From contig CAUSKK010000013.1 of assembly GCA_963532425.1 (NCBI GenBank), forward strand, positions 3,931 to 67,930: 64,000 nt of DNA, given 5' to 3'. Below are positions 5,077-61,855 of this stretch, piece after piece (position 1 is the first letter of the stretch; every line of letters begins with the position of its first letter). The DNA is from an uncultured Cardiobacteriaceae bacterium. Lineage in GTDB: Bacteria > Pseudomonadota > Gammaproteobacteria > Cardiobacteriales > Cardiobacteriaceae. A program made the translations under genes and the position numbers. The notes below the pieces were generated by a model, which was given only the letters and a program-made list of their open reading frames with translations, was not told where the DNA came from and searched no databases.

Positions 5077-5208
5077 GATTCTGGCCGGCCCGAGGGGGAA
5101 GCGCTTCGTTCTGAACCGACGGAACGGAGCGCTTTTTCTTGGGTACGCGGAAAATCCGCCCCGACCCGCCGGTGCTATGCTGTAGAAAAACGTTTCGGAG
5201 AACAGCCT

Positions 5209-6156
5209 ATGAACCTAGACCACCCCAGTATCCGCGCCCTGCTGACGGCAGCGATGGCGGCGCCCTCGGGCCACAACAGCCAGCCCTGGCTATTTCACCT
5301 TGGCCCCGAGACCATTCAACTGCGCCCGGATTTCCGCCGGGCCCTGCCGGTGGTAGACCCGGAACGGCGCGAGCTCTTCATCAGTCTGGGCTGTGCCCTG
5401 GAAAATCTCTGCATTCAGGCCAGCACCCTGCAGCTGGCGCCCCAGGTTAGCCTTAGCCCCGAGGCCATCACGGTGCGTCTGGAACCCTCGGCCCTGGTGG
5501 AACCGGACCCGCTGGCCGAAGCTATCTTTCGGCGCCAGAGCAACCGCAGCCTCTACGATGGCCGCCCCATTCCTCCGGCGCTGCTGGCGCCGCTGCTAAA
5601 ACCCTCGGCCGACACCACCATTCACGCCTATGGCCGGGGCACGGCCGATTTCCAACGGCTGGCCGATGCCGTTCGGCGGGGCAACGAGGCCCAGATGGGC
5701 GACCCGGCCTTCCGCGCCGAGCTCCTGTCCTGGATACGCTTCAACCGGGCCCACAGTCTGGCCACCCGCGACGGTCTCAGCAACGCCGTGCTCGGGGCTC
5801 CGAATCTGCCGCGCTGGCTGTCCCGGCTGATTGTGCGGAGCATGCTCAACGCCCGCACCCAGAACCGGGCCGACGCCCGTCAGCTGGCCCGCTGTTCCCA
5901 TCTGCTGCTGCTCAGCACCGCCGGGGACGACCCCACCAGCTGGATTAGCTGTGGCCGCAGCCTGCAGCGGCTGCTGCTGGGCCTGACCGCCGCCGGCATC
6001 GCCGCCGCCTATCTCAATCAACCCTGTGAGGTGCCAGCCCTGCGCGCCGAACTGGCCGACGTTCTGGGGGCCCGGCCGCAAATCCTGCTGCGCATCGGCT
6101 ACGGCCACAAACAGGCCTATTCGCTGCGCCGGCCGCTGGAAGCGCTGGTGGACTAG
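5209..6156 (+). CDS. nitroreductase-family FMN oxidoreductase
   Basis: 315 aa. 'AAPSGHNSQPW' is the nitroreductase N-terminal motif. GC3-rich codon usage. Confidence 0.7.
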   Translation: MNLDHPSIRALLTAAMAAPSGHNSQPWLFHLGPETIQLRPDFRRALPVVDPERRELFISLGCALENLCIQASTLQLAPQVSLSPEAITVRLEPSALVEPDPLAEAIFRRQSNRSLYDGRPIPPALLAPLLKPSADTTIHAYGRGTADFQRLADAVRRGNEAQMGDPAFRAELLSWIRFNRAHSLATRDGLSNAVLGAPNLPRWLSRLIVRSMLNARTQNRADARQLARCSHLLLLSTAGDDPTSWISCGRSLQRLLLGLTAAGIAAAYLNQPCEVPALRAELADVLGARPQILLRIGYGHKQAYSLRRPLEALVD

Positions 6157-6165
6157 GCCGTCGCC

Positions 6166-6984
6166 ATGGGGAAACGACTGCTGCTCCTGCTACTTCTGCT
6201 GCCGGCGGCCCTGCTGCTGCTCGGCTGCGCCCTGCAGGAAAAATTACTGTTCTACCCCCGGTCGCTGCCGGCCGACCTGACATTCAGCGCCCCGGCCGGC
6301 GCCCCCTTCAGCCTGACGGAAATCCGCCTGCCGGTGGCCGGCGCCGAACTGTCCGGTGCCCACCTGGCCCTGCCCCGGCCCCGGGGTGCCCTGCTCTTCC
6401 TGCACGGCAACGCCGGTGCCCTTGACGGCTGGCTGCCGACGGTGGCGCCGCTGACCGGCCTCGGCTGGGACGTCTACGTCTTCGACTATCGCGGCTTCGG
6501 CAAAAGCAGCGGCCACATCCGCAGCCAGGCCGAACTGCTGGCCGACAGCGAGGCCATGTTCGCCCGGGTGCGCGCCGATTTTCCCGCCGGACCCATCGTG
6601 CCGGTGGGCTATTCCATCGGCAGTGGCCTAGCCGCCCATCTGGCCCAGCGCGAACGGCTGCCGACGGTCATTCTCCTTGCCCCCTACTCCTCCCTGGCCG
6701 AGCTGGTCCGGGAGAAGGCGCCCTGGCTGCCGAGCTTCCTCCTGCGCTATCCCCTGCCCAGCGCCGACTATCTGGCCGCCGCCCCCGGCACGGTTACGCT
6801 TATCCACGGCACCGCCGACAGCCTCATTCCCCCGGCCCACAGCCAGCGCCTGCAAAAACGCCTCGGCGCCCGGGCCCGGCTGGTGCTGCTGCCTGCCGAC
6901 CATCAATCACTGCTCAGCGCCCCCGGCCTGCTGCCGGCCCTGGCCGAAGCGCTTCCCCCGGCCCCATCGTCCCCAACCCCCTAG
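6166..6984 (+). CDS. alpha/beta hydrolase, probable lipoprotein
   Basis: Lipobox-like 'LLLLGCAL'. 'LFLHGNAG' oxyanion region, 'GYSIGSG' nucleophile elbow, and late 'HGTADSLIP' and 'DH'. Confidence 0.8.
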   Translation: MGKRLLLLLLLLPAALLLLGCALQEKLLFYPRSLPADLTFSAPAGAPFSLTEIRLPVAGAELSGAHLALPRPRGALLFLHGNAGALDGWLPTVAPLTGLGWDVYVFDYRGFGKSSGHIRSQAELLADSEAMFARVRADFPAGPIVPVGYSIGSGLAAHLAQRERLPTVILLAPYSSLAELVREKAPWLPSFLLRYPLPSADYLAAAPGTVTLIHGTADSLIPPAHSQRLQKRLGARARLVLLPADHQSLLSAPGLLPALAEALPPAPSSPTP

Positions 6985-6993
6985 CTCCAGGCC

Positions 6994-7755
6994 GAAGCGC
7001 TTCGTTTTCGCCCACATTGTGGAGGGAAGCGCTTCATCAAAATCCGACTCCCCAGCCCGAAGCGCTCCCCTTTTTAGTACCCACCGCCGGACGGCGAAGC
7101 GCTTCCCCCTAGTCTAGGCAGCTGGGCTAGCTGTCCAAAGCGCTTCGGTTCGGCCGGCCTTTTCTTCCGAAGGAAGCGGTGGTTCCACTGCCTTGCCGCT
7201 CGCTGCGCTGAAGCGCTTCCCTCCCCTTAAATCTGGGCCCGCCAGAGGAAGCGCTTCGCTCTCACCGCCTGCTCCCTCTGAAATATTCTCGGCCCGGGCT
7301 TGAAACGACCGTTTGATTATCTTGGCCGATTCAGCGGGCTGGGCCGGGCGAAGCGCTTCGGGTGAAATGGCCTTTTCTTTCGCGATTGCGCCCCGTCGGA
7401 CGTTTTTACGAAGCGCTTCGGCTTGAACCGTCCCTTTGGTAGCTAAAGAAAGCGCTTCGCTCGGTTCTCACTCGTTTGAATTGGCGGTGGGAAACGCTCC
7501 CCTTTCCCAGCCCTAGCAAAGCGAAGCGCTTCGGCGTTTTGGCCCTTTGGGAAACGAAGCGCTCCCCTCGGCCCGGGTTTGGCCGTTCGATTGTCCCGAC
7601 TCATTTAGTGGGATTAGCAGGCTGAAGCGCTTCTGTCTGGACTTTCAGACCGAAGCGCTTCGGTTTCGCGGCCGAGGTTTAGAGGATGGGAAGGGGGCGG
7701 GAACCGGTGAAACGCTCATCCTGCCGATAGCGATTTAGCCAACCGAAGCGCTCCT
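6994..7755. repeat. array A of GAAGCGCTTC palindromes (10 exact plus 5 one-mismatch copies)
   Basis: Manual scan. Copies are spaced ~25-100 bp apart in a non-coding 3'-3' gap. ORF-track peptides here are KRF/EALR/SAS artefacts of the palindrome. Confidence 0.9.
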
Positions 7756-7908: not shown

Positions 7909-8103
7909 CTAGTCCGTCGGTTCCTGTTTGTCCCAGCTCAGGTCCAGTTTCTTCTTCCGCCGCTGTTTAAGAGTGATGAGTGCCGGCGGCAGTTCCCGTA
8001 GCCGGTTCATGTCCAAATCCAGGGTTTCCAGATTCTCCAAATTGCCCAGTTCCGGCGGTACTTCCTGCAGCTGGTTACCACTCAGAATCGGATATCCAGA
8101 TAT
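7909..8103 (-). pseudogene. out-of-frame 3' continuation of the LRR gene
   Basis: A minus-strand frame open from 8103 to TAG at 7909-7911 reads 'LSGNQLQEVPPELGNLENLETLDLDMNRLRELPPALITLKQRRKKKLDLSWDKQEPTD*'. This is two more canonical LRRs plus a tail, shifted by -1 relative to 8082..9503. Confidence 0.8.
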
Positions 8104-9503
8104 CTAAGGTCTCGCAAATTCCCCAGTTCCGGCGGCAGCTGGGTCAGAGCATTGCATCTCAGGGTAAGCCACTCAAGCTCCGGTAAATTACCCAATTCCA
8201 ATGGCAGCTCCCGTAGTTCATTGCTTTCCAGATGTAACCATTTCAGTTGCTTCAAGCCCCCCAGCTCCGGCGGCAGCTGGGTCAGAGCGTTATGGCCTAA
8301 ATAGAGATGCTCCAATTGGTCGAGCTGACCCAGCGTTGGCGGTAGCTCCCGTAGTCTGTTCCAATCCAATTTTAGCGTTTTCAGGTTTCGTAAATTCCCC
8401 AGTGCCGGCGGTAATTTCTCTAGGCCAACATTCTCCAAACTCAAAAATTTCAATTTATGTAAATTGACCAGCTCCGGGGGCAGCTGCTTCAGCGCTTTGC
8501 AATAATCCAGACGAAGGGTCTCCAAGCAAGGGAGCTGACCCATGACCGGCGGCAGCTCCTGCAGCGGATTGCTTTGCAAGTACAACTCTGTCAAGTGTTC
8601 CAGTTTGGCCAGACTCTCCGGCAGAAAAACGATAGCGTTGTGGGAAAGGTTAAGGATTTTTAGATTCTGCAGCTCGCTAATTTCCGGCGGTAGATAGGTG
8701 ATAACTCGCTGTTTGTCGGCTTCATCGTCATCCGGGTCGGCTATATATTTTAGGTTGAGCTCCCTGAGCCGCTGCAGGGCGACCCGGTCGCGGGGGAACT
8801 TGTCCCAGCTGATGTTAAATTCATCGGCCCAGTCGTAGAGGGCCTGGAAATTCTCATCGTCTTCTCGAAACAAATCCTTGTCGTCCACCTTAATATCTGG
8901 CAGCCAGTTGCTCATACGGTGAAGCACTTTAATCCCCTCCGGCAGCTGCTCCAGCGGATTGGCACGTAGGTCGAGAGTAAGTCTGGCCCGCTTGGGCAGC
9001 TCGGCAATTCCAGCCGGCAGCCGGGTCAGCCGGTTGTTCGGCAGCAGGATATTTTCCAGCCGGGGCAGCCGGGGGCCAAAAATGGCCGGCAGTTCGACGA
9101 GCTCGTTGTGGCCGAGGTCGAGGGTCTCCAGGCGCAGCAGGCCGACCAGCTCTGGTGGCAGCCGGCCTAGCCGGTTATGGTTCAGGCGGAGAACCTGCAG
9201 CCGGTGCAACTGGCCAATTTCGGCGGGGATTTCCGTCAGCCGGTTATTGCTTACATCCAGCTCGGTCAGGGTTGACAGCTGGCCCAGTTCCGCCGGCAGG
9301 CTTTCCAAACCGCTATGGCTGAGGTTCAGCGTGCGCAGTTTCTTGAGCGCGGCCAGTTCCGGCGGCAGCGACGCCAGGACCAGGCCGGATAAATCCAAGA
9401 CGGCCAGCTTTTCCAGGGCCTCCGGGTCGCGGGGGAAGCGCTCGGCGGGCAAGCCAGCGGCATCGGCCCAGGAGCAGAGACTATCAAACGAAGCTTTTTT
9501 CAT
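8082..9503 (-). CDS. leucine-rich repeat protein, two LRR modules (C-terminally truncated by frameshift)
   Basis: 473 aa with ~23-residue repeats 'L..L..L.L..N.L..LP.E(L/I)G.L'. Each module follows a cap of the form 'W-AD....(W)..FPRD..AL..L..L(D/N)L'. Confidence 0.9.
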   Translation of the reverse strand: MKKASFDSLCSWADAAGLPAERFPRDPEALEKLAVLDLSGLVLASLPPELAALKKLRTLNLSHSGLESLPAELGQLSTLTELDVSNNRLTEIPAEIGQLHRLQVLRLNHNRLGRLPPELVGLLRLETLDLGHNELVELPAIFGPRLPRLENILLPNNRLTRLPAGIAELPKRARLTLDLRANPLEQLPEGIKVLHRMSNWLPDIKVDDKDLFREDDENFQALYDWADEFNISWDKFPRDRVALQRLRELNLKYIADPDDDEADKQRVITYLPPEISELQNLKILNLSHNAIVFLPESLAKLEHLTELYLQSNPLQELPPVMGQLPCLETLRLDYCKALKQLPPELVNLHKLKFLSLENVGLEKLPPALGNLRNLKTLKLDWNRLRELPPTLGQLDQLEHLYLGHNALTQLPPELGGLKQLKWLHLESNELRELPLELGNLPELEWLTLRCNALTQLPPELGNLRDLRYLDIRF

Positions 9504-9572: not shown

Positions 9573-9598
9573 TAAAAAAACCCGCCCGGGGGCGGGGT
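9573..9598 (-). terminator. intrinsic terminator after the AAA+ gene
   Basis: The minus strand reads CCCGCC-CCCG-GGCGGG followed by T7. It sits 8 nt after the TAA at 9606-9608. Confidence 0.75.
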
Positions 9599-9605
9599 TT
9601 GGGAT

Positions 9606-10685
9606 TTAGAGCATGTCCCGGGCGGCGCGGTAGAGGTCCTTCCAGTCGTCGCGGCCCTTGACCACCGTTTCCAGATACTCCTTCCAGACGATGGCGTCCT
9701 GTACCGGGTCCTTGACCACGGCACCGAGCAGACCGGCCATGAGGTCATCGGCCCCAAGGGCACCGTCGCCGAAGTAGGCACTCAGCGCCAGCCCGTTATT
9801 CACCACGGAAATGGCCTCGGCGGTGCTCAGGGTGCCGCTGGGGCTTTTCAGCTTGGTTTTGCGGTCGCTGGTCAGGCCGGCGCGCAGTTCGCGGAAGATG
9901 GTAACGATGCGGCGAATTTCCGCCAGGGCCGGCTTTTCCGCCGGCAGTTTCATGGTTTCCTCGTACTGTTCCACCCGGCTGCGCACAATCTCCACCTCCT
10001 CGTCCAGGGACGCCGGCAGCGGCAGTATCACCGTGTTAAAGCGCCGTTTCAGCGCGCTGGACAGGTCATTGACGCCCTTGTCGCGGTTGTTGGCGGTGGC
10101 GATGAGGTTGAAACCGCGAATGGCCTGCACCTCCTTATTCAGCTCGGGAATGGGCAAGGTTTTTTCCGAAAGAATGGTAATCAGCGTGTCCTGCACATCG
10201 GAGCCGATGCGGGTCAACTCCTCCACCCGGGCAATCTTGCCGTCCTTCATGGCCCGCATCACCGGCGTTTCCACCAGCGCGCTTTCGCTGGGGCCCTTGG
10301 CGAGCAGCTCGGCATAGTTCCAGCCGTAGCGCACGGCCTCCTCGCCGGTGCCGGCGGTGCCCTGGACCACCAGCGTGCTATCGCCGGCGACGGCGGCGCT
10401 GATGTGCTCGCTGACCCAGCTCTTCGCCGTGCCGGGCAGACCGTAGAGCAGCAGGGCCCGGTCGGTGGCCAGGGTGGCGACGGCGATTTCCATCAGCCGG
10501 CGATTGCCGATGTACTTGGGTTTAATTTGGAATTTATTGGCCAGCTTATCGCCCATGAGATAGCTCACCACCGACTGGGGCGACAGCTGCCAATTCTCGG
10601 GGATGGGGTGTTTTTCCTGTTTTTTCAGCTGGGCCAGTTCCTCAGCAAATTGCTGTTCGGCGTGTTGTCTCAGAATGTCAGACAT
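9606..10685 (-). CDS. MoxR/YehL-like AAA+ ATPase
   Basis: Walker A 'LLYGLPGTAKS', Walker B region 'IARVEELTR', 'ATANNRD' and 'LKRRF'. The 'MSDILRQ' ATG at 10685 overlaps the upstream stop (ATGTCTGA). Confidence 0.85.
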   Translation of the reverse strand: MSDILRQHAEQQFAEELAQLKKQEKHPIPENWQLSPQSVVSYLMGDKLANKFQIKPKYIGNRRLMEIAVATLATDRALLLYGLPGTAKSWVSEHISAAVAGDSTLVVQGTAGTGEEAVRYGWNYAELLAKGPSESALVETPVMRAMKDGKIARVEELTRIGSDVQDTLITILSEKTLPIPELNKEVQAIRGFNLIATANNRDKGVNDLSSALKRRFNTVILPLPASLDEEVEIVRSRVEQYEETMKLPAEKPALAEIRRIVTIFRELRAGLTSDRKTKLKSPSGTLSTAEAISVVNNGLALSAYFGDGALGADDLMAGLLGAVVKDPVQDAIVWKEYLETVVKGRDDWKDLYRAARDML

Positions 10686-12102
10686 GGTTTTTTCCTTGGT
10701 TAAAAAAATCGTCAAGCACTTGCAGTGCGTCATATTCGGCCCACAGCGGGGCCAGCGCCGGCCAATCGGCCAGCCGCCGCCGCCACTGGCGAAAAATCGG
10801 GCCCCGGTGCAGCCGGGCCGCCAGTTCCACCGCCGCCCCGGGGGCCGCCCCCAGCCGCAGCCAGCGGTGCACCATCAGCAGGGCGTAGTAGGGCCCCCAG
10901 ACCATTTCCGGCGTCAGCATGGCCGGCAAATCGTCGCGGGCCCGGCGGCCGGCGGCGGGCAGGGCTTCCAGCTGGGCCCGGGTGAACGGCGCCCCGGCGC
11001 CCAGCACCCGCTCCGGCTCGTTTAACAGGGTCAGCAGCCCCGGCACCCGGGCCGTCCAGTGCCGCACCAGGGCGTCCTGGCTGGCCGGCGGCAGCGTGCC
11101 GAAAACCCGGAGCAGGTCGCGGTTGGTGAAGAAATCCGGGGCTGTGGCGAAATAGGGCACGTGCAGGCTCGGCGGCAGCTGGCCGAGCCAGCGGTAGAAA
11201 CGGGCGGGGCTGGGGAAAATTTGGTCGCGCAGGCCCGGGTCGCGCTGCCAGAGCTGAATCAGACTAGGAATGTCCGGGCAGTGGCAGAGGGCCAGCCAGG
11301 TGGCCGGGTCCCTGACCCGGGCGGCCAGAATGCCGATGGCGTTGGGTCGGCCCAGGCCCGGTTCCGAGCGAAGCGCTTCCGGTGGCAGGGCCGCCACACG
11401 GAAGCCCACCTCGGCCCGCCGGCCGAGCCACCGGGCCAGCCCGGCCCAGCGGCGGGGCGGGTCGTAGTGGAGGGCAGCGCGTAGCCAGCGTTGCTGGCGG
11501 GCCGGGTCAAGCAGACCCACTTCGGCCCCCAGGCAGCGTTTCAGCGTCGCCCGTTCGGCCCGGTCGAGCCGGGGCCCGAGCCGCCGCAGCCAGCGCCGGT
11601 CGGCCCGGCTGAAAAAGCGGGCACTGGCAATGAGCCCAATCTGGCGCGGCTGGCCGGCCGACCGCTGCCGTTGCCAGAGGGCGTGCAGGGCCCGGCGCCA
11701 GCGGTCGCCATCGAGCCGGTGCAAAGCCCGGAGCTCGGCGAAACGTTGCGGCCGGGTCAAACCCGCGAGGCCGGCCAACGCCAGCGCCGCCGTCGACCGG
11801 GCCCGTTCCCCCCGCCGCTCGCGCTCCGGCGCCGCTAGCAGCGGCAGAAAAAGGCCGGGCCGCCGGTGAAGCGCTTCGCCGGGGCGGAAATGGAGCGTCT
11901 GCCAGTCGGCGGCGGTCAGCCGGTAGCGGTTACTACGCAGCAGCCGGGCGCCGAGCAGGCCAATGGCCGACCAGCCCCGGACCGCCTGCCAGCGCTGCCA
12001 GGCGACGCGCAGCGGCTCCGGCAGGGGTGGGGGCTCTGCTCGGCACCCGGCCACCGGGGGAAGCGCTTCGGTGCCGACGGCCCGGGGGCGGGAGGCATTC
12101 AT
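10678..12102 (-). CDS. hypothetical 474-aa Arg/Trp/Leu-rich protein (operon member, no recognisable motif)
   Basis: Long ORF that is start/stop-coupled to both neighbours. Contains in-frame copies of the palindrome as E-A-L. I recognise no domain. Confidence 0.6.
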   Translation of the reverse strand: MNASRPRAVGTEALPPVAGCRAEPPPLPEPLRVAWQRWQAVRGWSAIGLLGARLLRSNRYRLTAADWQTLHFRPGEALHRRPGLFLPLLAAPERERRGERARSTAALALAGLAGLTRPQRFAELRALHRLDGDRWRRALHALWQRQRSAGQPRQIGLIASARFFSRADRRWLRRLGPRLDRAERATLKRCLGAEVGLLDPARQQRWLRAALHYDPPRRWAGLARWLGRRAEVGFRVAALPPEALRSEPGLGRPNAIGILAARVRDPATWLALCHCPDIPSLIQLWQRDPGLRDQIFPSPARFYRWLGQLPPSLHVPYFATAPDFFTNRDLLRVFGTLPPASQDALVRHWTARVPGLLTLLNEPERVLGAGAPFTRAQLEALPAAGRRARDDLPAMLTPEMVWGPYYALLMVHRWLRLGAAPGAAVELAARLHRGPIFRQWRRRLADWPALAPLWAEYDALQVLDDFFNQGKNHV

Positions 12103-12110
12103 GGGGGCGG

Positions 12111-13793
12111 CTAGGCCTTCGCGGCCAGGGCGTCATCGAATTGCAGGCGCGATTCGTAGAAGGCCAGCACCCGGCCGAAGCTGTCGAGCAGCTGGCGCTC
12201 CTGCATCATTTGGCGCACCTGGGCGCTGTTACCCCCGCCGACCTCGGCCAGGTCGTCGGCGGGCTGGGGCGCCGGCGGCTGTTCCCGGAAGGCCACCGCC
12301 AGGGCGCGCAGGGTCGGGCTGGCGCTCAGCCGTAGGGCCGCATAACGCTGCTGGCTGTGCTGGTAATAGAAATAACTGTCGCAGTGGCGAACGGTATAGA
12401 GAACCAGCAGCGAATAGCGTTCACCCCAGGGCTCGCCGGTGTCGTCATTGAAATCCGTCAGCAGGCTAAAGTCCATATTTTCCCAGCGCCGGGCCGCCGC
12501 CGAGTGGCCGAGGAAAAACTCCTCGGGCCGCTGGAAGAACAGCTTCAGGTGGGGATTGTGTTCGGCCTGGGCGGCCAGCACCCGTTCACGCTGGGCGCTG
12601 TTGAGCTGCTTCAGGAGCCACAGGTTATTGTCCTTGTAGTGGCCCATCGTCGGCTGCCGGCTGAGATATTCCACCAGAAAGGCCGTGCCCAGTTCGCTGA
12701 GCCAGCCGTGGTAGCTCTGGCTGCTCGTCAGCCAGCCGTGTTCAAAATAGCGCTGGGCCAGCGGCGTGCGAATCAGAGTTTCGGCCAGTTCGGCCACGTC
12801 CGCGCTGTGGGTCATTTCCAGCCAGAATTCCAGCCGGTGGACGCGGTGAATCAGCTGGCGGCGCAGGAAGTTATCGTCGCTCTCATTTTTATCGCTGCTG
12901 ATTTCCTCCAGTCCCAGCGCCTTCATCTCCTTGCTGAAGGCCAGCGGCGTCATGTGCCAACCGGCCTTGTCATGGCTGAGCGTCTGCCGAAGCCAGCCCT
13001 CCAGCGCCCGGGTGCTGGCGCTGTCCGGCAGCCGGGCCAGCAGAAGGCCGGCCGTCTCGCGCACGTTGCTGGAACGGTCCTTCAGGCAGGCTTCGATGAA
13101 GGGAGCGTCGGCCGGACTAAGGTTGTTCCGCAGCAGCTCCAGATAGGCCAGCCGGTGATTGGCCGGGGCCCCCTTCCAAATCTCCTCCACCCGGAGCCGG
13201 GCCGCCTCGGGATTTTCCCGGCGCAGGCTGCTGAGATGGGCGCGGCGACCGCTGAAATCCAGCTCCAGCAGCGGGTCGGCGTCCGGGGCCGGCGTGGTGG
13301 GGGCGCTGCCCAGCTCGGTGCGCAGGTCGTTCGGCAGTTCGGCGCCAAGCTGGGTCAGCAGCCAGCGGCCCCGGTCGTCCAGCAGGTCGAGCCGACCCTT
13401 GAGCCGTTTCACTTCGCCGCGCAGGAGCAGCCGTTGCAGGCTGGCTTCGTCCAGACAATGGCCACTCCGTTTCAGGGTCGCCAGGGCGTAATCGAGATAG
13501 TCGCGCTCGTCCTGTTCGAGCCAGGCGGTCAGCACCCGTCGGGCCGGGGCCGGCAGCACCCGGCCGTCCGGGGCCGGGGCCGGTGGTATCGGCTGCCAAT
13601 CATCCTGATGGGTTTCCAGCCGGGCGCCGCTGCGGTCGGAGCCGTAGGCCAGGGCCAGCAGGTCATAGGCCCGGGGCAGCGCTTCGGCCGGGGGCAGCCG
13701 GGCCACGGCTTCGGCCAGCGGGGGCGGGGGCGGCGGCAGGGGACCGGCGTCGAGGCCCATCAGGGCAGCATTGAATAGTTGGGGATTAAGCAT
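12111..13793 (-). CDS. hypothetical 561-aa helical protein, possibly DUF5691-like
   Basis: ATG 13793 ('MLNPQLFNAALMG') overlaps the SWIM gene stop (ATGCTTAA). 'LKDRSSNVRETAGLLLARLPDS' is HEAT-like. The DUF5691 assignment is from memory of SWIM-adjacent genes only. Confidence 0.6.
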   Translation of the reverse strand: MLNPQLFNAALMGLDAGPLPPPPPPLAEAVARLPPAEALPRAYDLLALAYGSDRSGARLETHQDDWQPIPPAPAPDGRVLPAPARRVLTAWLEQDERDYLDYALATLKRSGHCLDEASLQRLLLRGEVKRLKGRLDLLDDRGRWLLTQLGAELPNDLRTELGSAPTTPAPDADPLLELDFSGRRAHLSSLRRENPEAARLRVEEIWKGAPANHRLAYLELLRNNLSPADAPFIEACLKDRSSNVRETAGLLLARLPDSASTRALEGWLRQTLSHDKAGWHMTPLAFSKEMKALGLEEISSDKNESDDNFLRRQLIHRVHRLEFWLEMTHSADVAELAETLIRTPLAQRYFEHGWLTSSQSYHGWLSELGTAFLVEYLSRQPTMGHYKDNNLWLLKQLNSAQRERVLAAQAEHNPHLKLFFQRPEEFFLGHSAAARRWENMDFSLLTDFNDDTGEPWGERYSLLVLYTVRHCDSYFYYQHSQQRYAALRLSASPTLRALAVAFREQPPAPQPADDLAEVGGGNSAQVRQMMQERQLLDSFGRVLAFYESRLQFDDALAAKA

Positions 13794-15090
13794 GGGCGGC
13801 CTCCGGCAGGAAGGACAGCAGCCGATTGCGGCCGTCGTTGAAGTTGTGCAGCACAAAGGCCGTGCCGGCCCGGCCGCCGCTGCTGGCCAGCAGCTGGATT
13901 TTTTCGTTTGGATTCAGGGCCAGGGGCAGGACCTGCTGGCCGTCGCTGAGGCCGCCGGCCTCGCCGCGCTGCACATAGTGCACGCCGCGCAGCCACAGGG
14001 GCCAATGGTTCAGAAAGGGATTGGCGGCGATGGCCTGCTGGGCCCCGGCCCAGGTTTCTTGCAGCGGCTCGGCCGGGGCGGCCAGGGGAAGCGCTTCCTC
14101 GTTGAAGTTCAGGGTTTTCGGCAGGGCGCGCAGCGGGTTGATGCCGGCATAGAAACACAGTTCGGCGTCATAGTGGGTGCCCACGGCCAGCGGCGGCAGC
14201 GCCGGCGGGACGTTGTTCATGGTGAAATCCAGCAGCAGGGCGAAGCGCTTCGTTTCCAGGCCGAAGAGATAGTAATGAAGGGAGGTGCCGCGCTGCTGTT
14301 CCAGTTCCAGCCGGCCCACCACCCGCCAGCGGTCGGCGACGGCAGCCCCGGCCAATATCTCCTCCTTGGCCTGCGGGAAGCCGAGGCGGGTTTTGATTTC
14401 CGCCTGCCAGGCCGGGCTCAGCTGTTCCTGGTTGGCATAGCTGCGCGCGAGCAGATGGAGCTTGCTCAGGCCGTAGAGCAATTCCTCCTGTTGGCCGGCC
14501 GGCAGCAGGGCCAGCCGTTGCAGCTCCTGGGCCAGCGGCGCCAGCTGGGCATCGACCAGCCGTTTGGCCATGGCCGGGAAGGCTTCGCCGCGCTGGTTGT
14601 CGGTGTGAATGATGCCGTTGCGCAGCAAATCCTGCAGCCACAGCTGCAAATCGGCGAGGCCGGCACTGACCTTCTTGGCCCGGGCGGCGGCGGTTTTCTG
14701 CTGCTGTTTCGGGTCGGCGGCCTTGCTGGCCTTGGCTTCGGCCCGGGCGGCCTTGGCCTCCTGGGCGCTGCTGCGTTTATCCAGCCAGGCCTGCACCCAG
14801 TCGGGGCTTTCCGCAGCCATGATTTTTTCCGGGTTGGCGCTGGCCACCTGGAGCAGGGAAAGGGCGTGTTTACAGGGGAATTTGCGGCTGGGACAGCTGC
14901 ATTTGCTCACCAAATCGCCGGCGGCGATAACGGTTTGATAGGGATTTTTGCCACTGCCTTTGCACAGACCCCAGAGGGCGGCGTCGTTGCCGCCGAGCAG
15001 CTGCCATTTGCCGGCCAGGCCCCGGGCGGCACTGATGGAGGCGCTGTCGGGCGCCAGTTGATTGATTTGTTCCGTACTTAAGCTAATCAT
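13786..15090 (-). CDS. SWIM zinc-finger protein
   Basis: 'CSCPSRKFPCKHALSLL' matches the CxCx(n)CxH SWIM signature. GAGGA RBS upstream of ATG 15090. First gene of the operon. Confidence 0.85.
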   Translation of the reverse strand: MISLSTEQINQLAPDSASISAARGLAGKWQLLGGNDAALWGLCKGSGKNPYQTVIAAGDLVSKCSCPSRKFPCKHALSLLQVASANPEKIMAAESPDWVQAWLDKRSSAQEAKAARAEAKASKAADPKQQQKTAAARAKKVSAGLADLQLWLQDLLRNGIIHTDNQRGEAFPAMAKRLVDAQLAPLAQELQRLALLPAGQQEELLYGLSKLHLLARSYANQEQLSPAWQAEIKTRLGFPQAKEEILAGAAVADRWRVVGRLELEQQRGTSLHYYLFGLETKRFALLLDFTMNNVPPALPPLAVGTHYDAELCFYAGINPLRALPKTLNFNEEALPLAAPAEPLQETWAGAQQAIAANPFLNHWPLWLRGVHYVQRGEAGGLSDGQQVLPLALNPNEKIQLLASSGGRAGTAFVLHNFNDGRNRLLSFLPEAAHA

Positions 15091-15204
15091 TTTTTCCTCG
15101 CTCTAAAAAACGCTTCATCCTTTTTCCTTACACTAAAAAACCCGGTTGAACTCGTTCCGGGGGCCTATTCTGCCATTAAAATCGGGGCTTTTTCGGAGGT
15201 TTTT

Positions 15205-16029
15205 ATGGCCGGAACGCTCTATGTGGTGGCCACGCCCATCGGCAATCTCAATGACATTTCGCCCCGGGCCCTGGAGGTGCTGCGCCGGGTGGACCTCATC
15301 GCCTGCGAGGACACGCGCCACAGCCAACATCTGCTCGGCCACTATGCCATTCGCCAGCCGCTGCTGGCCCTGCACCAGCACAACGAGCGCGCCAACGGCG
15401 AAGCGCTGCTGCGGCGGCTGGAGGCCGGCGAAAGTGTGGCGCTGATTTCCGATGCCGGCACGCCGCTCATCTCCGACCCGGGCCACAGCCTGACCGCCCG
15501 GGCCCTGGAACGGGGCCTCCGGGTGGTGCCGGTGGTGGGGCCGAGCAGCGTCATGGCCGCCCTCAGCGTCGCCGGCCTGCCGGCCGATAGCTTTGTGTTT
15601 GCGGGCTTCATTCCGAGTAAGGCCGGTGAACGGGAGCGCTTCCTCGCTGACTATCGCCGCGAAACCCGCACCAGCGTTTTCTTTGAAACCCCCCACCGCA
15701 TCGCCGCCAGTCTGACCGCCCTGGCCGCCGTCCTCGGTCCGGAACGGCTACTGGTCATCGGCCGCGAGCTGACCAAACAGTTTGAGGAAATCGTGCGCCT
15801 GCCCCTGGGCGAAGCGCTGCCCTGGTTGCAGGCCGACCCGAACCGCAGCCGGGGCGAATTTGTGCTGGTGCTGGCCGGCGCCGTAACGGTGGCCGAACCC
15901 TGGGAGGAGCTGGCCCGGGCGTTGCGGGCCGAGGGGCTGGGGGCGAAAACCATCAGCGCCCTGCTCGCCCAGCATCTCGGCGCCAACAAAAAGGCGGTCT
16001 ATCAATATCTGCTCGACCGGGCCGACTAA
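15205..16029 (+). CDS. rsmI: 16S rRNA (cytidine1402-2'-O)-methyltransferase
   Basis: 'LYVVATPIGNLNDISPRALEVL..VDLIACEDTRHS' is the RsmI/tetrapyrrole-methylase-fold N-terminus. GGAGG RBS. Confidence 0.92.
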   Translation: MAGTLYVVATPIGNLNDISPRALEVLRRVDLIACEDTRHSQHLLGHYAIRQPLLALHQHNERANGEALLRRLEAGESVALISDAGTPLISDPGHSLTARALERGLRVVPVVGPSSVMAALSVAGLPADSFVFAGFIPSKAGERERFLADYRRETRTSVFFETPHRIAASLTALAAVLGPERLLVIGRELTKQFEEIVRLPLGEALPWLQADPNRSRGEFVLVLAGAVTVAEPWEELARALRAEGLGAKTISALLAQHLGANKKAVYQYLLDRAD

Positions 16030-20442: not shown

Positions 20443-20901
20443 GAAGCGCTTCGCTGGAACGATTAAATCCTGTCGCCGAGAGGGAAGCGCTCCCCCCGCC
20501 GGGCCGGATGGCCACACCAACTCTAAAAAGGGGAAGCGCTTCGTTTCCGGGGGCCAGCGACCGAAGCGCTTCTTCCGTCCCAAGGTTTTCCCACGACCCC
20601 GGCCCGATGGCTTAAACCGAAGCGCTTCGTTGTAAAAGACCCGGCGGGAGCGAAGCGCTCCCTCTCTAAGCCACGAGTTCGTTCCCTAGCTCAGCCATTG
20701 GCCATTCCAAAATCGAAGCGCTTCCCCCGGCTCGAGCTTTAAAACGCCGAAGCGCTTCGTTCTACCGGCCCATTCCCCTTCGCCTGCCGGCGGCCGAGCC
20801 GGAAGCGCTTCCTTCTGGGAAGCCAGTTAAAAGGGTCAGAGCGTGAGGGCATGCTAGTCGAAGCGCTTCAGCCGGGAAGTTTGCCCGGGGGGAAGCGCTT
20901 C
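20443..20901. repeat. array C of GAAGCGCTTC palindromes (9 exact plus 2 variant)
   Basis: Manual scan of the non-coding 3'-3' gap between gmk and the oxidoreductase gene. Confidence 0.9.
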
Positions 20902-30408: not shown

Positions 30409-31824
30409 GAGCGCTTCTAGCGAAGCGCTTGGTTTTGAATCTCCAGTCGAAGCGCTTCCCCTTGGCAGCCCAAATAAAACCGAAGCGCTTCGGTGTTCGG
30501 TGCAGGGGAAAGCAGGAAAGCCGGGCCGGGGCGAAATGGCCAACGCTGAAAACCGGTCGAAATCAACGAAGCGCTTCGGTTCCAGAATCAGCCCCGGCAC
30601 GATTCGGCGCACCGCTTCGGTGCAGCGCTCCCCCGCGTGGCTGGCCCCATTGACCGAAGCGCTTCGTTAGAACGCCAGCACCCGGCGAATGATTTCCTTC
30701 AATCCCCAAACCCCGATTGGGGCCGTAGCGTTAAACCCCGACTCGGGGGTCTTTGCTTCTACGAACGAAGCGCTTGGCTATAAAGCAAGAGCCTATCGGA
30801 CGAAAAACCCGAGCCCGCCCGTCGAAGCGCTTCTTCGGTGCAGGGGAAAGCCGGGCCGGGGTGAAATGGCCAACGCTGAAAACCGGTCGAAATCAACGAA
30901 GCGCTTCGGTCGCCGACTCGGGCCTGCTTTTTTGCCGCGCCCGGCCAGTTAAATCGAAGCGCTTCACTGGGCCCTCTGTTTCCCCTGGCTTTTCTGGCCG
31001 GCCCGCCCGAAGCGCTTCGGTTTAATCAGCCAACGGCTAGCGCCGCTTTCTCCCGCCGTCTCTTCGGCTGAAGCGCTTGGCTCGAAGAAGCCCCTAGGAC
31101 TCAAGCGCTTCGTTGCTTTCGAAAAAGGGAGCGCTTCCGGTGAAGCCAAATCAAAGAGGAAGCGCTTCCCGGCCTGGCCAACCGACCGCCCTTGGCGGCA
31201 CCAACCGAAGGACGGTGAACCGCAGCGAAGTAGCAAGCCGCTGGTGAAGCGCTTCTCTCATTAGTTCAGTGCGCCAGGCCGGAAGGTTTCCGCCGAATGA
31301 AGCGCTTCGGACGGAAATAAACGGTGGAGCATGCTTCGTTCGGTCGCTTTCCCATCCTGTCCAGCCAGCCGCCGGAAAGGGGGAAGCGCTTCGTTTTTCT
31401 TGGCTTCCGAGACCGAAGCGCTTCGGCTTCGGCGCCCATAGAAGGAAGCGCTTCGGTTTTGGAGGCTGGAAAAGGGGAATGCTTTGAGTAGGACGATTAA
31501 AACGAAGCGCTTCGGTTTGAGGGAGAAAAGGGGGAGCGCTTCGAGGGTCGTTCTAAACGAAGCGCTTCGCTTTGAGAAGGGACGCGGCTTCACCACCGGA
31601 AGCGCTTCGGCTCACGGGAGGAAGCGGGCCGAGGTCGATGTTTTCAAAGCCACCGAAGCGCTTCGTTATTTTTGGAAAAGGGGAGCGCTTCATTCGGGGA
31701 AGACGGGAAAGGAGGAAGCGCTTCGGTCGCGCCGGTGGATTTTTCCCCGGCCCGGCGGCGGCCATTGCCAGCCATCGGAAGGAAGCGCTTCATTCTGGAA
31801 AAGCCGGCAAAAAGGAAGCGCTTC
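30409..31824. repeat. array D of GAAGCGCTTC palindromes (21 exact plus at least 8 variant)
   Basis: Manual scan. Contains a ~90-100 bp internal duplication (30481-30580 vs 30833-30920). Confidence 0.9.
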
Positions 31825-40148: not shown

Positions 40149-41806
40149 GAAGCGCTTCCCCCTAAACCCTGGGCTCGAAGCGCTTCGCTCTGAACAACCT
40201 TAAAAGAAGCGCTTCGGTTTCTCCGGCCGCCGGGAACGAAGCGCTTCGTTGAAAGTCCTATTTTCCCAGTCAGAAGCGCTTTGCTCTAACCCCCGAGGCC
40301 GAAGCGCTCCCTTCTTCTAAGACAGCAGAAACACTTCCCCGGGCATCAAACCGAAGCACTTCGGTTGCTAGCGGCAAGAGGCGGAAAAAAGCATCGGGGA
40401 AGCGCTTTACTCTGGAAACCCACAAAAGCCGGAAGCACTTCACCGCTGAAAGTCCAAAATAAAGCCACTGGGCCGGCGGGCCGAAGCGCTCCCCTTTTCC
40501 CAAAGAATGAATAAAGGTTCCGGCTTAAAGCGCTTCGTTGAGAAATGTCCTTCAGAAAAGAAGCGCTTCCTGGGGAACCCCCGGCCCGGGCCATTACTTC
40601 CACAGACGACGAAGGCGAAGCGCTTCGGTTTCTCTGGCCGCCGGGAACGAAGCGCTTCCTTCTTTAACCGAGGCCAGCACAGCAATAGAACGTTTTGCAC
40701 TGGCTGCCTCACCCTTGGCAGTGATAAAAGCCCCGGCCCGGTTTTGGTTGGAAGGGAAAGAAGCGCTTCGCCTCTGGGCTTTAAAACGCTTCCTCGGCCC
40801 GAAGCGCTTCGATTTAATCGCCGACGCTGGCCGGGTCGGCAATTTATCCCCCGCCAGAAACTGAAAAAAACCCGGGCCGTCGGGGCGCCGCTATTTCCCA
40901 GCCGTCCGGGCGAAGCGCTTCGCTAAAAACGACTCGGGCCGGATAGCTAAAAACAACCGACGCCGGGTCGGGAAAACCACTGGCCCCGGCCGCAGCGCTT
41001 CGGCTGCCAGCGGCCGGAAGCCGAAAAAACCACCGGGGAAGCGCTTTACTCTGGAAACCCACAAAAGCCGGAAGCGCTTCGCCGTTGAAAGCCTCAGAAG
41101 GCCACTGGGCCGGGGGAACGAAGCGCTTTGAGTTCGGCCCGAAGAGAGGCTCTCTAGCTGAAAGCCGGTGAAAAACGAAGCGCTTCGGTGGAGCTTACTG
41201 CGAAAGTAAAGCCACGACCGCCCGCGCCCGGCCGGGGCCAATCGTGTTTTTGTGAACAGGGGAAGCGCTTCCAACGGGAAAGCCAGCCAGGGGACGAAGC
41301 GCTTCCCCTTCTGGCCGCAACTGATGAATAGGACTAGCCGGGCCAAGGGCCGCCGCCGAGCAATGCCGAAGCGCTTCCCTCGGGAAAGCCGCATTCAAAG
41401 TGAGCCGGCGGGCCGGGGCGTCATCGTTCCGGCGGCGAAGCGCTTCCTTCTCTAAATCTAGGGTCGGCCCGGCAATAAACCCTTTTGCGCCCGCTGTTTC
41501 GGTCAAAACGACTCGGGCCGTAGGAGCACTTCTCCCGGCTCGCAAACCGAAGCGCTTCATTAATTGGCCGGCGCCGGCTAAAGACGAGAAGAAGCGCTTC
41601 CCCCGGCGAAAAGGAAAGCCGGCCCCGGTCGCAGCGCTTCGGTTACAGCGTCGGTTCGGACGTTTTCCCGGGGCCCCGGGGCCGCGCTTTTTATCTGGCC
41701 AGCGGGACGAACGGCCGTCGCGCTTCCCCTTTTCCCAAAAGACAAATCAAGAGGCCCCGGCCCGAAGCGCTTCGGTTTTAGCTCGTGCGATGGTCCGAAG
41801 CGCTTC
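40149..41806. repeat. array E of GAAGCGCTTC palindromes (20 exact plus more than 10 variant)
   Basis: Manual scan. Contains a ~140-bp internal duplication (40351-40492 vs 40991-41130) and a ~50-bp one (40206-40250 vs 40617-40660). Confidence 0.9.
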
Positions 41807-47763: not shown

Positions 47764-48228
47764 ATGACTACCGTTCTCCTCTGGCTGCTGGTGGGCGGCC
47801 ATTTGCTTTTCTGGCTAGCCTATGACCGGCTGCTGACGAAGCGCTTCGGCCCGACCCTCCTGCGGGTGCGCCTGCGGCGGCGCTGGGTCGATGGCCTGTT
47901 CTTCGCCCTTATCCTCGGCGCGGCTCTGGCCAGCTGTGTCCAGTCCGGCCGCTGGGATTGGGCCCTGCCGCTGGCCCTGCTGCTGTTGCTGCTGCCGAGC
48001 TGGCGCCCGGCTTATTGGCAGCTGAAGGCCGACGGCTTCATCCTGGCCGGCCGCTACTGGCCCTACAGCACCCTGCAGCAAATACAGCTGGCCGATGACG
48101 GCGTTTTACATTTGACCTTGAATAATGGCGTGCAGCTGCCGCTGGCGGCGGTTAATTTGGACGAACTGGAGGCGGCGGCCTATTTCCTCGGCAGCGGTGA
48201 GCTGCCACCGACGGAGCAAAAACCATGA
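47764..48228 (+). CDS. yobD: YobD-like (DUF986) membrane protein
   Basis: 154 aa. 'YD......(F/N)GPTLL' and 'DDGVLHLTL' parallel E. coli YobD, which also follows manZ. Confidence 0.65.
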   Translation: MTTVLLWLLVGGHLLFWLAYDRLLTKRFGPTLLRVRLRRRWVDGLFFALILGAALASCVQSGRWDWALPLALLLLLLPSWRPAYWQLKADGFILAGRYWPYSTLQQIQLADDGVLHLTLNNGVQLPLAAVNLDELEAAAYFLGSGELPPTEQKP

Positions 48229-53953: not shown

Positions 53954-54413
53954 GAAGCGCTTCAACCGGAGCAGATTTAGAAAGGGGGAGCGCTTCGTTC
54001 TGGAACGCGGCTCCCGGCCGAGAAAACCAACTGGAGCAAATCCAGCCGAAGCGCTTCGGTTTTAGCCGGCTCGGGCCGGGGGGAAACGGCTTCAGAGGGG
54101 AAGCGCTTCGTTCTAGAGAGCCCAGCTTCGGCCCCGGCGCCCAGAAAAGCCATTGCCAACGAAGCGCTTCGGTTTAGCGCTGTAGATTGCTTAGGAGGGA
54201 GCGCTTCGACTGGTGGGGCCAATGGAGTGAAGCGCTTCGTTTGGGGAGACGGGAAACCCCGGCCCGATGGGGAACGGGGAGCGCTTCGGCAACCCCATTG
54301 GAGAGGAAGCGCTTCCCCAGAACGAAGCGCTTCGGTTTGAACCCAAAGAAGGAAGCGCTTCCGGCCGGCCCCGGGCAACGAAGGCTTCCGGCCGGCCCAG
54401 GGGGAAGCGCTTC
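53954..54413. repeat. array F of GAAGCGCTTC palindromes (9 exact plus 4 variant)
   Basis: Manual scan of the 3'-3' gap before ahpF. Confidence 0.9.
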
Positions 54414-60106: not shown

Positions 60107-61855
60107 GAAGCGCTTCGGACTCCGTAGAAGTCTGAAACGCAGCGAGCGACAGGCAAGCCACCGCTTCAAGCTCTACGGAAGCGCAGCGGCGGGCGAGCCA
60201 ACGGCGAGCACCCCAGCAACTGCTTCGCCCGCCGGCCCAATTAAGGAAGCGCTTCGTTCGTCCGCTGCCCCGCTGGCCGACCGAAAAGAGTGCCACCCCG
60301 AAGCGCTTCATTGGGAACGCCTTTCCCAGTCCGAAGCGCTTCCCCTTTTCCCGTTTTTCCTGAGCGAAGCGCTTCCCTTGGGTGCCGCTATCCCCAATGG
60401 CCCGAAGCCGGCATTGCTATTCCCTGTCGGACTTCAGAACGAAGCGCTCCCCCTGGTTAGAACCTAGGAAGCGCTTCGTTCGTTCACGGCCCCGAGGTTC
60501 AACCAAAAGGAGAGCCGCCCCGAAGCGCTTCAGTTTAGTCCCCCGAGGCCGAATTTATTTTTCCCGGCCTCTGAGGTCGAAGCGCTTCCCTATTTGAGCC
60601 GGTAATGATTGAACCGGGGCCAACCGGCCGAAGCGCTTCGCCCGCCTAACCCATAAGGAAACGCTTCCCTTGGGTGCCGCTATCCCCAATGACCCGAAAC
60701 CGGCATTGCTATTCCTTGCCAGACTTCAGAACGAAGCGCTCCCTCTGGCTAGAACCCAGGAAGCGCTTCATTCCGACTAGCGAAGCGCTTCCCTTTTGCC
60801 GGGCCGGTGATTATTTATGTCAGACCGAAGCGCTTCGTTGAGATTAGCCTTCGAGGGAGAAGCGCTTCCGGCTGGAGATTCAGAACGAAGCGCTTCCTCC
60901 TCCGGCTGTTAAAACCGAAACGCTTCGGCCCGGGCCGGGGCTAATACGACCGTTGAACGGTAGCGCTTCCTTCCCAACTTGGCCAATGGCGAAGCGCTTC
61001 GGCCCGGCCAGTTGCTCTAAACCGAAGCGCTCCCCGTTTTCCCAGCCGGAAGCGCTTCAGTTTTTTTTGAGCCGGCGGGGCGAAGCGCTTCCTGCCAATG
61101 GCTAGAGCTGCCACTGGGCCGGGGAAAAATCTACAGGCTAAGGCCGAAGCGCTTCATTCCTAGGATTTGGCGAAGCGCTCCCCTCTGTTGTCCTAGCCAG
61201 TCGAAGCGCTTCGCTGGGAAAAAACCTTGGGAAGGAAGCGCTTCCGTTGGATACGGCAGAAGGGAGCGCTTCGATTTAGAGCGGGGTCGAAGTAGAACGA
61301 AGCGCTTCGTTCTAACGGCCTGGCCAGAAGGACTTTAGACCAGCGGGCCGATTTATCTGGCTGCGCCGGGGGAAGCGCTTCGGTTCTGGCGTCCCAGTCC
61401 AGAGGGGGCGTTGCTCGTCCGGCAAACGCGCGGCGCTGAAGCGCTTCAGTTTTAAACGGCAGATTTTCGGGAAGCGCTTGGGCTTCCGGAAATCGCTCAA
61501 GGGGGGAGCGCTTCGTTTCCGGAGGCCAGATAAACCGAAGCGCTTCGTTTCGGCGGTTCGCAGAGATTAAGGAATCGCTTTAAGGGAGAACGCGCTTCAT
61601 TTTCCAACGGCTTTTAATCATCACGAGCCCCGGCCCGTCAGAACCAAAGCCCTTCGGCCGCTGGCCAGGTGTTGGCCGGGCCGATGATTTAAAGAGGGAG
61701 CGCTTCGCTTCGGCCTCTTAGGTTTGCTTTCTAGGCTGAAGCGCTTCGTTCGGCGGTAGAAGAAAACGGCTGGACATTGGCTTGGCACTGGGAGCGAAGC
61801 GCTTCGGCTCCAGGGGGATTGAACAATCCGCAAACGGCCGGCGGGGAAGCGCTTC
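60107..61855. repeat. array G of GAAGCGCTTC palindromes (27 exact plus more than 12 variant)
   Basis: Manual scan. Contains a ~118-bp internal duplication (60362-60480 vs 60657-60775). Confidence 0.9.

Follow-up and report, generated by a model that had tools for sequence, protein, structure and literature searches.

The window analysed here is a stretch of 64,000 nucleotides (64 kb) from an uncultured Cardiobacteriaceae bacterium (GenBank assembly GCA_963532425.1, contig CAUSKK010000013.1, forward-strand positions 3,931 to 67,930). Its minus strand carries a four-gene operon encoding a SWIM zinc-finger protein, a DUF5691 protein, a 474-amino-acid (aa) protein that we call X474, and an AAA_5 ATPase. 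We compared this operon with homologous loci in other bacteria, and it is probably a reduced derivative of a widespread, uncharacterised five-gene module. The operon and its borders comprise the following features, in window coordinates:

13786-15090, minus strand: SWIM zinc-finger gene, 434 aa, first gene of the operon
12111-13793, minus strand: DUF5691 gene, 560 aa (560/561), start overlapping the SWIM stop (ATGCTTAA)
10678-12102, minus strand: X474 gene, 474 aa, rich in Arg, Ala, Leu, Pro and Trp
9606-10685, minus strand: AAA_5 ATPase gene, 359 aa, MoxR/NorQ/midasin-like, start overlapping the X474 stop (ATGTCTGA)
9574-9596, minus strand: intrinsic terminator closing the operon, CCCGCCCCCGGGCGGG followed by TTTTTTT
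15091-15204, no strand: intergenic region between the SWIM gene and an rsmI-like gene, presumed promoter region

An earlier reading of this DNA, made from the sequence only, had described four chained minus-strand open reading frames (ORFs) that end at a clean terminator, and the coordinates, junctions and terminator were all seen in the sequence. The SWIM stop and the DUF5691 ATG overlap by 8 nt, the DUF5691-X474 junction reads TAG, 8 nt and ATG, and the X474 stop and the ATPase start again overlap by 8 nt. A strong terminator, with a stem of six G-C pairs (9596-9581) followed by T7, lies directly after the ATPase gene. The ATPase gene has its own ribosome-binding site (AAGGAAAAAACC), that of the SWIM gene is GAGGAAAAAATG, and the Shine-Dalgarno sequence of X474 is weak. 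With its start at 10685, the ATPase is 359 aa long, equal in length to all homologues. Codon-position guanine-plus-cytosine (GC) content was compatible with coding in all four frames (GC at third codon positions, GC3, 0.82-0.85), and the overall GC of the operon genes was 0.62-0.74. The divergent neighbour upstream of the SWIM gene is the rsmI-like gene (15205-16029, plus strand). The operon promoter would presumably lie between these two genes, where a simple scan found no sigma-70 consensus.

Domain searches gave names to three of the four proteins. The SWIM protein matched PF04434 (Pfam, E = 4.7e-6, residues 61-82, motif CSCPSRKFPCKH) and a SWIM family hidden Markov model (HMM) built for this analysis (E = 1e-164). 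The ATPase matched PF07728 (AAA_5; Pfam, E = 2.4e-35), so that both end members carry the identities first proposed for them. The 561-aa protein, which had been called unnameable, is a DUF5691 protein (PF18944, E = 1.8e-43 across residues 5-531, nearly full length). Its AlphaFold2 model (predicted local distance difference test score, pLDDT, 73) is all-alpha, an alpha-solenoid of the HEAT/ARM-like kind, and a Foldseek search of the PDB returned generic HEAT/ARM/alphaRep matches only (all E ≥ 0.026). The closest solved structures to the ATPase were the Midasin AAA domains (1e-10) and NorQ (1.7e-5). Its Pfam match to bpMoxR fell under the threshold (22.4 vs 27 bits), as did its scores against the NCBIfam equivalogs MadB (35 bits, cut-off 475) and GvpN (32 bits, cut-off 267). 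PADLOC-DB 2.0 gave marginal partial matches only (DpdE SWIM region, 1e-3; IetA P-loop, 3e-4). The NCBIfam and PADLOC scans added nothing specific for the operon proteins, and no effector domain was found in any of the four with Pfam, NCBIfam or PADLOC.

We observed that homologues of the DUF5691 protein and the ATPase sit in a regular five-gene operon with the order SWIM - DUF5691 - AAA_5 - DUF5682 - VWA_CoxE. With the ATPase as query we retrieved 80 genome loci, which were annotated with our own family HMMs. The canonical module was present in about 65 of them, and there its five genes were always contiguous. Nearly all Bacteroidota loci were canonical and closely packed, and the Chitinophagaceae version adds DUF4132. 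The module occurs in Bacteroidota, Proteobacteria, Actinobacteria-type high-GC contigs and E. coli. It is rare in E. coli: 34 of 5426 complete genomes carry it, as an accessory island that separates gltD from the nan operon. A transposase and a DUF1016 remnant adjoin the module of E. coli 18KM2445 (L094, NZ_CP151004.1, 554766-562206). RefSeq names the E. coli products SWIM zinc finger domain-containing protein, DUF5691 domain-containing protein, AAA family ATPase, DUF5682 family protein and VWA domain-containing protein. In the literature searched, we found neither the name DUF5691 nor DUF5682, and no functional study of DUF5691, DUF5682 or yehLMPQ.

The window operon shares with this module the SWIM gene in first place, DUF5691 immediately next and then an AAA_5 ATPase of the 358-360-aa class, in the same order and with tight coupling (identity to the window proteins 78-91% for the ATPase, 37-58% for SWIM and 25-38% for DUF5691). 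It differs in that DUF5682 and vWA are missing after the ATPase, an eroded DUF5691 paralogue stands between DUF5691 and the ATPase, and the operon stops at a terminator right behind the ATPase. The kinship with SWIM-DUF5691-AAA-DUF5682-vWA clusters that the sequence-only reading had named is upheld by Pfam families and conserved neighbourhoods. The deviating gene order it described is not, because the SWIM-DUF5691-AAA order is canonical apart from one inserted gene, X474. The likeness it saw to yehLMPQ holds as that of a distant cousin: YehL is 39% identical to the window ATPase, and YehM has a match to the DUF5682 profile, YehP to that of vWA and YehI to that of DUF4132. The yehI-yehK-yehLMPQ genes of E. 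coli K-12 have the same domain repertoire and are likewise uncharacterised. They differ in their order (AAA-DUF5682-vWA-SWIM), in belonging to a much more distant branch and in having the vWA half, and YehQ had no match to our SWIM and DUF5691 profiles at E < 1e-3.

The ATPase of the window is 91% identical to that of a Cardiobacteriaceae metagenome-assembled genome (locus L014) and 76-81% identical to those of Bacteroidota (Bacteroides, Chitinophaga, Alistipes). So conserved a protein is unusual in an accessory module of sporadic distribution, and the co-operonic SWIM and DUF5691 proteins are far less conserved (SWIM, 58% to L014 and 37-41% to Bacteroidota; DUF5691, 38% and 25-30%). We also determined the ratio of nonsynonymous to synonymous substitution rates (dN/dS) at strain level, between the window and metagenomic contigs ~97.7% identical to it, with per-gene values against contig L001. 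The ratio was 0 for the ATPase (0 nonsynonymous and 9 synonymous differences against L001; 1 and 19 over all strain contigs), 0.13 for SWIM and 0.38 for DUF5691. Purifying selection acts strongly on the SWIM protein and most of all on the ATPase.

The vWA partner had been reported as missing, and it was absent from all frames of the window. Searches with tblastn (four references per family) found no DUF5682, vWA or DUF4132 in any frame of the 64 kb, and hmmsearch --max over all its stop-to-stop ORFs gave a best E > 2 for these families. Neither the other frames nor the 1-kb gap that follows the leucine-rich repeat (LRR) gene behind the operon contained DUF5682 or vWA remnants. Three related loci, L014 and the Cardiobacterium spp. 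loci L036 and L048, were examined as 21-kb loci and likewise had no DUF5682 or vWA within 10 kb of the ATPase. L048 lies on NZ_OU745373.1, the complete chromosome of Cardiobacterium sp. Marseille-Q4385. The ATPases of the window and of these three loci form one clade in a neighbour-joining tree. It is therefore plausible that the DUF5682-vWA half was lost once, in the ancestor of the vWA-less clade. In identity to Bacteroidota, the vWA-less ATPases are just 1-3 percentage points below their vWA-linked relatives.

X474 had no match in Pfam, NCBIfam or PADLOC. A word-indexed search of 5.8 billion clustered proteins returned a single homologue, a strain copy 94% identical to it. Besides this copy, a full HMMER scan of 1.84 billion representatives gave one weak repeat-like match (P0141) and nothing convincing, and tblastn against plasmids gave no match. 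The AlphaFold2 model of X474 is all helical with a pLDDT of 44, unusable as structural evidence.

BLASTP with compositional adjustment aligned residues 206-412 of X474 with residues 267-466 of the neighbouring DUF5691 protein (23% identity, E = 6e-5), and a Smith-Waterman shuffle test of the pair gave p ~0.005 (SWIM and ATPase controls, p 0.5-0.7). Against an 88-sequence DUF5691 profile, X474 scored 44.9 in hhalign, compared to 16.6 ± 2.5 for composition-preserving shuffles (maximum 22.9, n = 200; z ~11). The score was 45.1 after the window's own lineage was dropped from the profile, and 47.5 over 270 columns (X474 116-437) with a profile of ten proteobacterial relatives only. As a negative control, 13 unrelated proteins from insertion slots of other loci scored 14-27.5 against all family profiles. 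The X474-DUF5691 alignment is collinear and keeps the motifs R..L..LR, W, SxAD, WLRxxLxxD, WLxLxH, LP and WGxxY. Because of the BLASTP match, the shuffle-controlled and lineage-robust hhalign scores, the collinear motifs and the negative controls, we assign X474, on sequence comparison, as a very divergent DUF5691-family paralogue that lacks the family's N-terminal ~170 residues. The relationship is detectable by profile-profile and pairwise comparison only; hmmsearch with our own DUF5691 HMM scored X474 at -4.8, no better than shuffles.

Other assignments of X474 were tried and rejected. Its hhalign probability was 0.2% as a truncated DUF5682 and 1.8% as a hidden vWA, and hhalign against the SWIM, AAA and DUF4132 profiles was negative. 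Searches of X474 DNA against all related loci with blastn and tblastx yielded nothing beyond GC-composition noise in the 73%-GC locus L007 and were discarded as evidence. The 474-aa protein was thus neither the short DUF5682/YehM or vWA protein considered at the outset nor beyond naming. This accounts for the 'orphan' of the operon and makes the locus less exotic than it had seemed.

By inspection, X474 keeps about 3 of 12 family-invariant columns of the central DUF5691 signature (in the window DUF5691, R183...D229...D239, V244, A248 and L251/252), and a 4-residue deletion in this signature takes out R245-A248. Its composition (R 15%, A 15%, L 15%, P 9.5%) is enriched for amino acids with GC-rich codons, and its GC3 is 0.85. 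The dN/dS of X474 was 0.73 against L001, a value that comes from ~50 substitutions in three sequence variants and is statistically inseparable from 1 or from ~0.4. Given the few invariant columns, the failure of Pfam and HMM searches, this dN/dS and the skewed composition, X474 is eroded and evolving close to neutrally. The reading frame of X474 is uninterrupted in the strain contigs, among which three sequence variants were read. One strain contig (L003, ~5146-5164) has an in-frame 37-aa (111-nt) deletion in X474, spanning codons ~193-229 between two AEVG-encoding direct repeats, which could be a real haplotype or an assembly collapse.

Downstream of the operon terminator, two features belong to the LRR gene:

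8082-9503, minus strand: LRR gene, 473 aa, two LRR modules (LRR_8 and LRR_14, E ~1e-44)
about 7909-8081 (to 8085), minus strand: out-of-frame LRR continuation behind a 3' frameshift, with more LRR repeats and a natural-looking C-terminus

The LRR gene has its own ribosome-binding site, and its overall GC is 0.56 vs 0.62-0.74 in the operon genes. The frameshift removes ~57 residues of LRR sequence, and the next frame after the TGA ends in …LSGNQLQEVPPELGNLENLETLDLDMNRLRELPPALITLKQRRKKKLDLSWDKQEPTD* (frame translations, tblastn). A related strain, contig L011, shares this frameshift. We found no further LRR genes in the window. Outside the window, just two Cardiobacterium loci (L048 and L018) have an LRR homologue near the ATPase, and none was found in the sister locus L014 or in any Bacteroidota locus. 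The L048 homologue follows its ATPase gene at a distance of 4 kb. Directly upstream of the ATPase in L018 are two overlapping ORFs in different frames (5275-6544), one for a caspase (Peptidase_C14) and one for an LRR protein, which may be a frameshifted caspase-LRR fusion; no SWIM, DUF5691, DUF5682 or vWA was found in L018. The terminator, the lower GC, the conserved frameshift and the absence from L014 indicate that the LRR gene is probably a separate transcription unit. These same features speak against the suggestion of the sequence-only reading that the LRR gene occupies the place of the vWA gene.

Hot spots of gene insertion in the Cardiobacteriaceae/Neisseriaceae clade lie where one core gene meets the next. 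The slots hold genes for TIR and DUF4291 proteins (L008), a microbial PARG (L017), a PLD-domain protein (L024), caspase plus LRR (L018), an S49 peptidase (L014) and a glyoxalase (L023). DUF4291 is a predicted ADP-ribosyltransferase-like (ART-like) family (PMC12522546). Several of the insertions are flanked by fragments of ATPase or DUF5682 genes, and L017 has one DUF5682 on the opposite strand, several kb upstream. The slot genes fit, without proving, a recombination-driven cargo slot in a conflict-related module; the window operon itself has no such effector.

We also observed an unassigned 310-aa gene that is 94-96% identical in L008 (7862-9891), L019 (11091-12549) and L048 (11091-12399). 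The L008 copy precedes the ATPase, and those of L019 and L048 follow it. ATPase-gene fragments flank it in all three loci, and in L008 a 277-aa DUF5682 fragment does so as well. Its presence on either side of the ATPase and the flanking gene fragments suggest that it is a cassette moved by recombination within the module.

Since the 561-aa protein is a clear DUF5691 and the shared genes stand in the usual order, we consider it probable that the locus is a reduced, lineage-specific derivative of the SWIM-DUF5691-AAA_5-DUF5682-VWA_CoxE module, in which a Cardiobacteriaceae sub-clade has lost DUF5682-vWA and kept the constrained SWIM-DUF5691-ATPase core, and this species has gained a second, eroded copy of DUF5691. 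This is more economical than a variant conflict system. By analogy, the ATPase would form a hexameric ring of the MoxR/NorQ/midasin type and spend ATP on remodelling or extracting a target protein. Scaffolding or target recognition may fall to two adaptors, the SWIM protein and DUF5691, a HEAT-like protein that evolves fast. A second, metal-dependent grip, comparable to that of NorD/CbbO or the midasin MIDAS domain, would be supplied in the full module by DUF5682 and the vWA protein with its MIDAS. Lacking that grip, the core in the window may be a stripped-down, vWA-independent remodeller, or may work with partners encoded elsewhere. X474 would contribute little, at most a new specificity. 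The LRR gene would be no vWA substitute; it would be a neighbour with its own transcription, probably acquired horizontally and damaged in part.

Known relatives of the ATPase set this proposal in context. MoxR-type AAA+/vWA pairs are defined by cooperation with a vWA/MIDAS protein. The window operon shares an AAA_5 ATPase with NorQ-NorD, CbbQ-CbbO, CoxD-CoxE and Midasin/Rea1 (ring plus MIDAS domain), of which Midasin and NorQ are its nearest solved relatives. It differs from these systems in having no vWA protein, and its neighbourhood implies no nitric oxide reductase (NOR), Rubisco or pre-60S substrate. With the MoxR-vWA ternary conflict systems (Kaur, Burroughs, Iyer and Aravind 2020, eLife, PMC7159879) it has in common an AAA+ ATPase plus repeat proteins, and loci related to it, not the window operon, carry TIR, caspase, PLD and ADP-ribose-related genes as those systems do. 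Those systems combine a MoxR ATPase, a vWA protein and a VMAP-type third component with effector-associated domains. The window operon differs from them in the missing vWA, the sub-threshold bpMoxR match and the lack of effector-associated domains. The word SWIM occurs 0 times in PMC7159879. A 2026 preprint on MoxR-vWA sensing in Actinomycetales describes a different system, of the beta-propeller/kinase/FHA type.

Several observations weigh against the reduced-derivative reading. The absence of DUF5682-vWA covers 64 kb of the genome, and a pair encoded elsewhere would lie outside it. The breadth of values compatible with the X474 dN/dS belongs here too, and X474 could still be used, as its frame is open in every strain contig seen and tightly coupled on both sides. 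For the uncharacterised parent module, the remodeller mechanism is drawn by analogy only. Three of ~9 Cardiobacteriaceae loci have an LRR homologue close to the ATPase, and that of L018 adjoins a caspase domain or is fused to it; this recurrence hints at a real link. Pure coincidence is further opposed by a Leptospira protein that combines LRR, WGR and DUF4132 domains (PMC11674859); we treat the link between LRR gene and ATPase as tentative.

Alternatively, the operon might be a functional new NTPase-driven conflict or sensing variant, with an ATPase that acts without a MIDAS partner and with DUF5691 plus X474 and/or the LRR protein as sensors or adaptors replacing DUF5682-vWA. The slots of the clade, with their TIR, ART-like DUF4291 (L008; PMC12522546), PARG (L017), PLD (L024) and caspase plus LRR (L018) genes, are consistent with this, as are the LRR homologues near the ATPase in the window, L048 and L018, the Leptospira fusion, and the rarity of the module as an accessory island in E. 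coli. Three or four species have also retained the vWA-less state, and their ATPases are still highly conserved. We nevertheless regard this alternative as unlikely, because a terminator separates the ATPase from the LRR gene; the LRR gene is frameshifted, differs in GC and is absent from L014 and from every Bacteroidota locus; X474 is near-neutral and has lost most family-invariant residues; and the window operon has neither a PADLOC match nor an effector domain.

A complete but split system, with DUF5682 and vWA encoded elsewhere in the genome and acting in trans, appears somewhat less likely still. It would account for the very strong purifying selection on the ATPase in the vWA-less clade (1 nonsynonymous vs 19 synonymous) and for the drop of just 1-3 percentage points in identity to Bacteroidota. 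Rearrangement is frequent in the clade, with AAA and DUF5682 gene fragments and the opposite-strand DUF5682 of L017. Against this stand the lack of DUF5682 and vWA in the 64-kb window and in the 21-kb loci L014, L036 and L048, and the contiguity of the five genes in all of the ~65 canonical loci.

A more far-reaching proposal is that the MoxR/midasin-like ATPase is MIDAS/vWA-independent, that several Cardiobacteriaceae species retain a minimal SWIM-DUF5691-AAA core, and that this core is re-armed here with a second, fast-diversifying DUF5691 'sensor', X474, and the adjacent LRR protein. If true, the window locus would be a new kind of NTPase-driven sensing or conflict module; we hold this only as a doubtful, speculative prospect. 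It is highly improbable that X474 is unrelated to DUF5691, as an orphan or de novo gene or as a non-coding high-GC ORF kept open by chance or for translational coupling into the ATPase: the missing Pfam match, the shuffle-like hmmsearch score of -4.8, the composition typical of translated GC-rich DNA, the purely compositional tblastx noise, a dN/dS inseparable from 1, the pLDDT of 44 and the weak Shine-Dalgarno sequence would suit it, but hhalign places X474 ~11 standard deviations above composition-preserving shuffles with three different DUF5691 profiles, unrelated proteins stay below such scores, the BLASTP match is collinear under compositional adjustment (E 6e-5), and a 474-codon frame would be open by chance with p ~1e-3 even at 74% GC (base-composition estimate).

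Apart from the operon, the window is rich in a 10-bp palindrome, GAAGCGCTTC, of which the 64 kb contain 123 copies where 0.18 would be expected. The majority are grouped in intergenic arrays, each with 9-29 copies at intervals of roughly 20-170 bp, and scattered single copies occur in addition. The arrays lie at:

6946-7661
20443-20901
30449-31824
40149-41806
53954-54413
60107-61855

The repeats fill the 1-kb gap downstream of the LRR gene. Three copies fall inside X474, each encoding Glu-Ala-Leu, two in the SWIM gene and one in the ATPase-LRR spacer. The palindrome is equally dense in same-species contigs, has 1 copy in the sister species L014 and is essentially absent from the other loci; it looks like a species-specific uptake-sequence-like or repetitive extragenic palindromic (REP)-like element. 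Elsewhere, between window positions 48001 and 52000, GC falls to 0.51 and then 0.34, against a window average otherwise of ~0.65, and this segment is probably a foreign island.

The parent module is widespread, and its ATPase is conserved at a housekeeping-like level across phyla, with 78-80% identity. Natural 'deletion mutants' such as the window locus reveal which parts of the module are dispensable. In the vWA-less clade, SWIM, DUF5691 and the ATPase stay under purifying selection with no DUF5682-vWA nearby, which suggests that the module consists of two halves that can be separated. DUF5691 evolves fast and has been duplicated, and sister lineages carry TIR, ART-like, PARG, PLD and caspase-LRR genes in the slots; these findings hint that DUF5691 may be the specificity component of a conflict-related machine.

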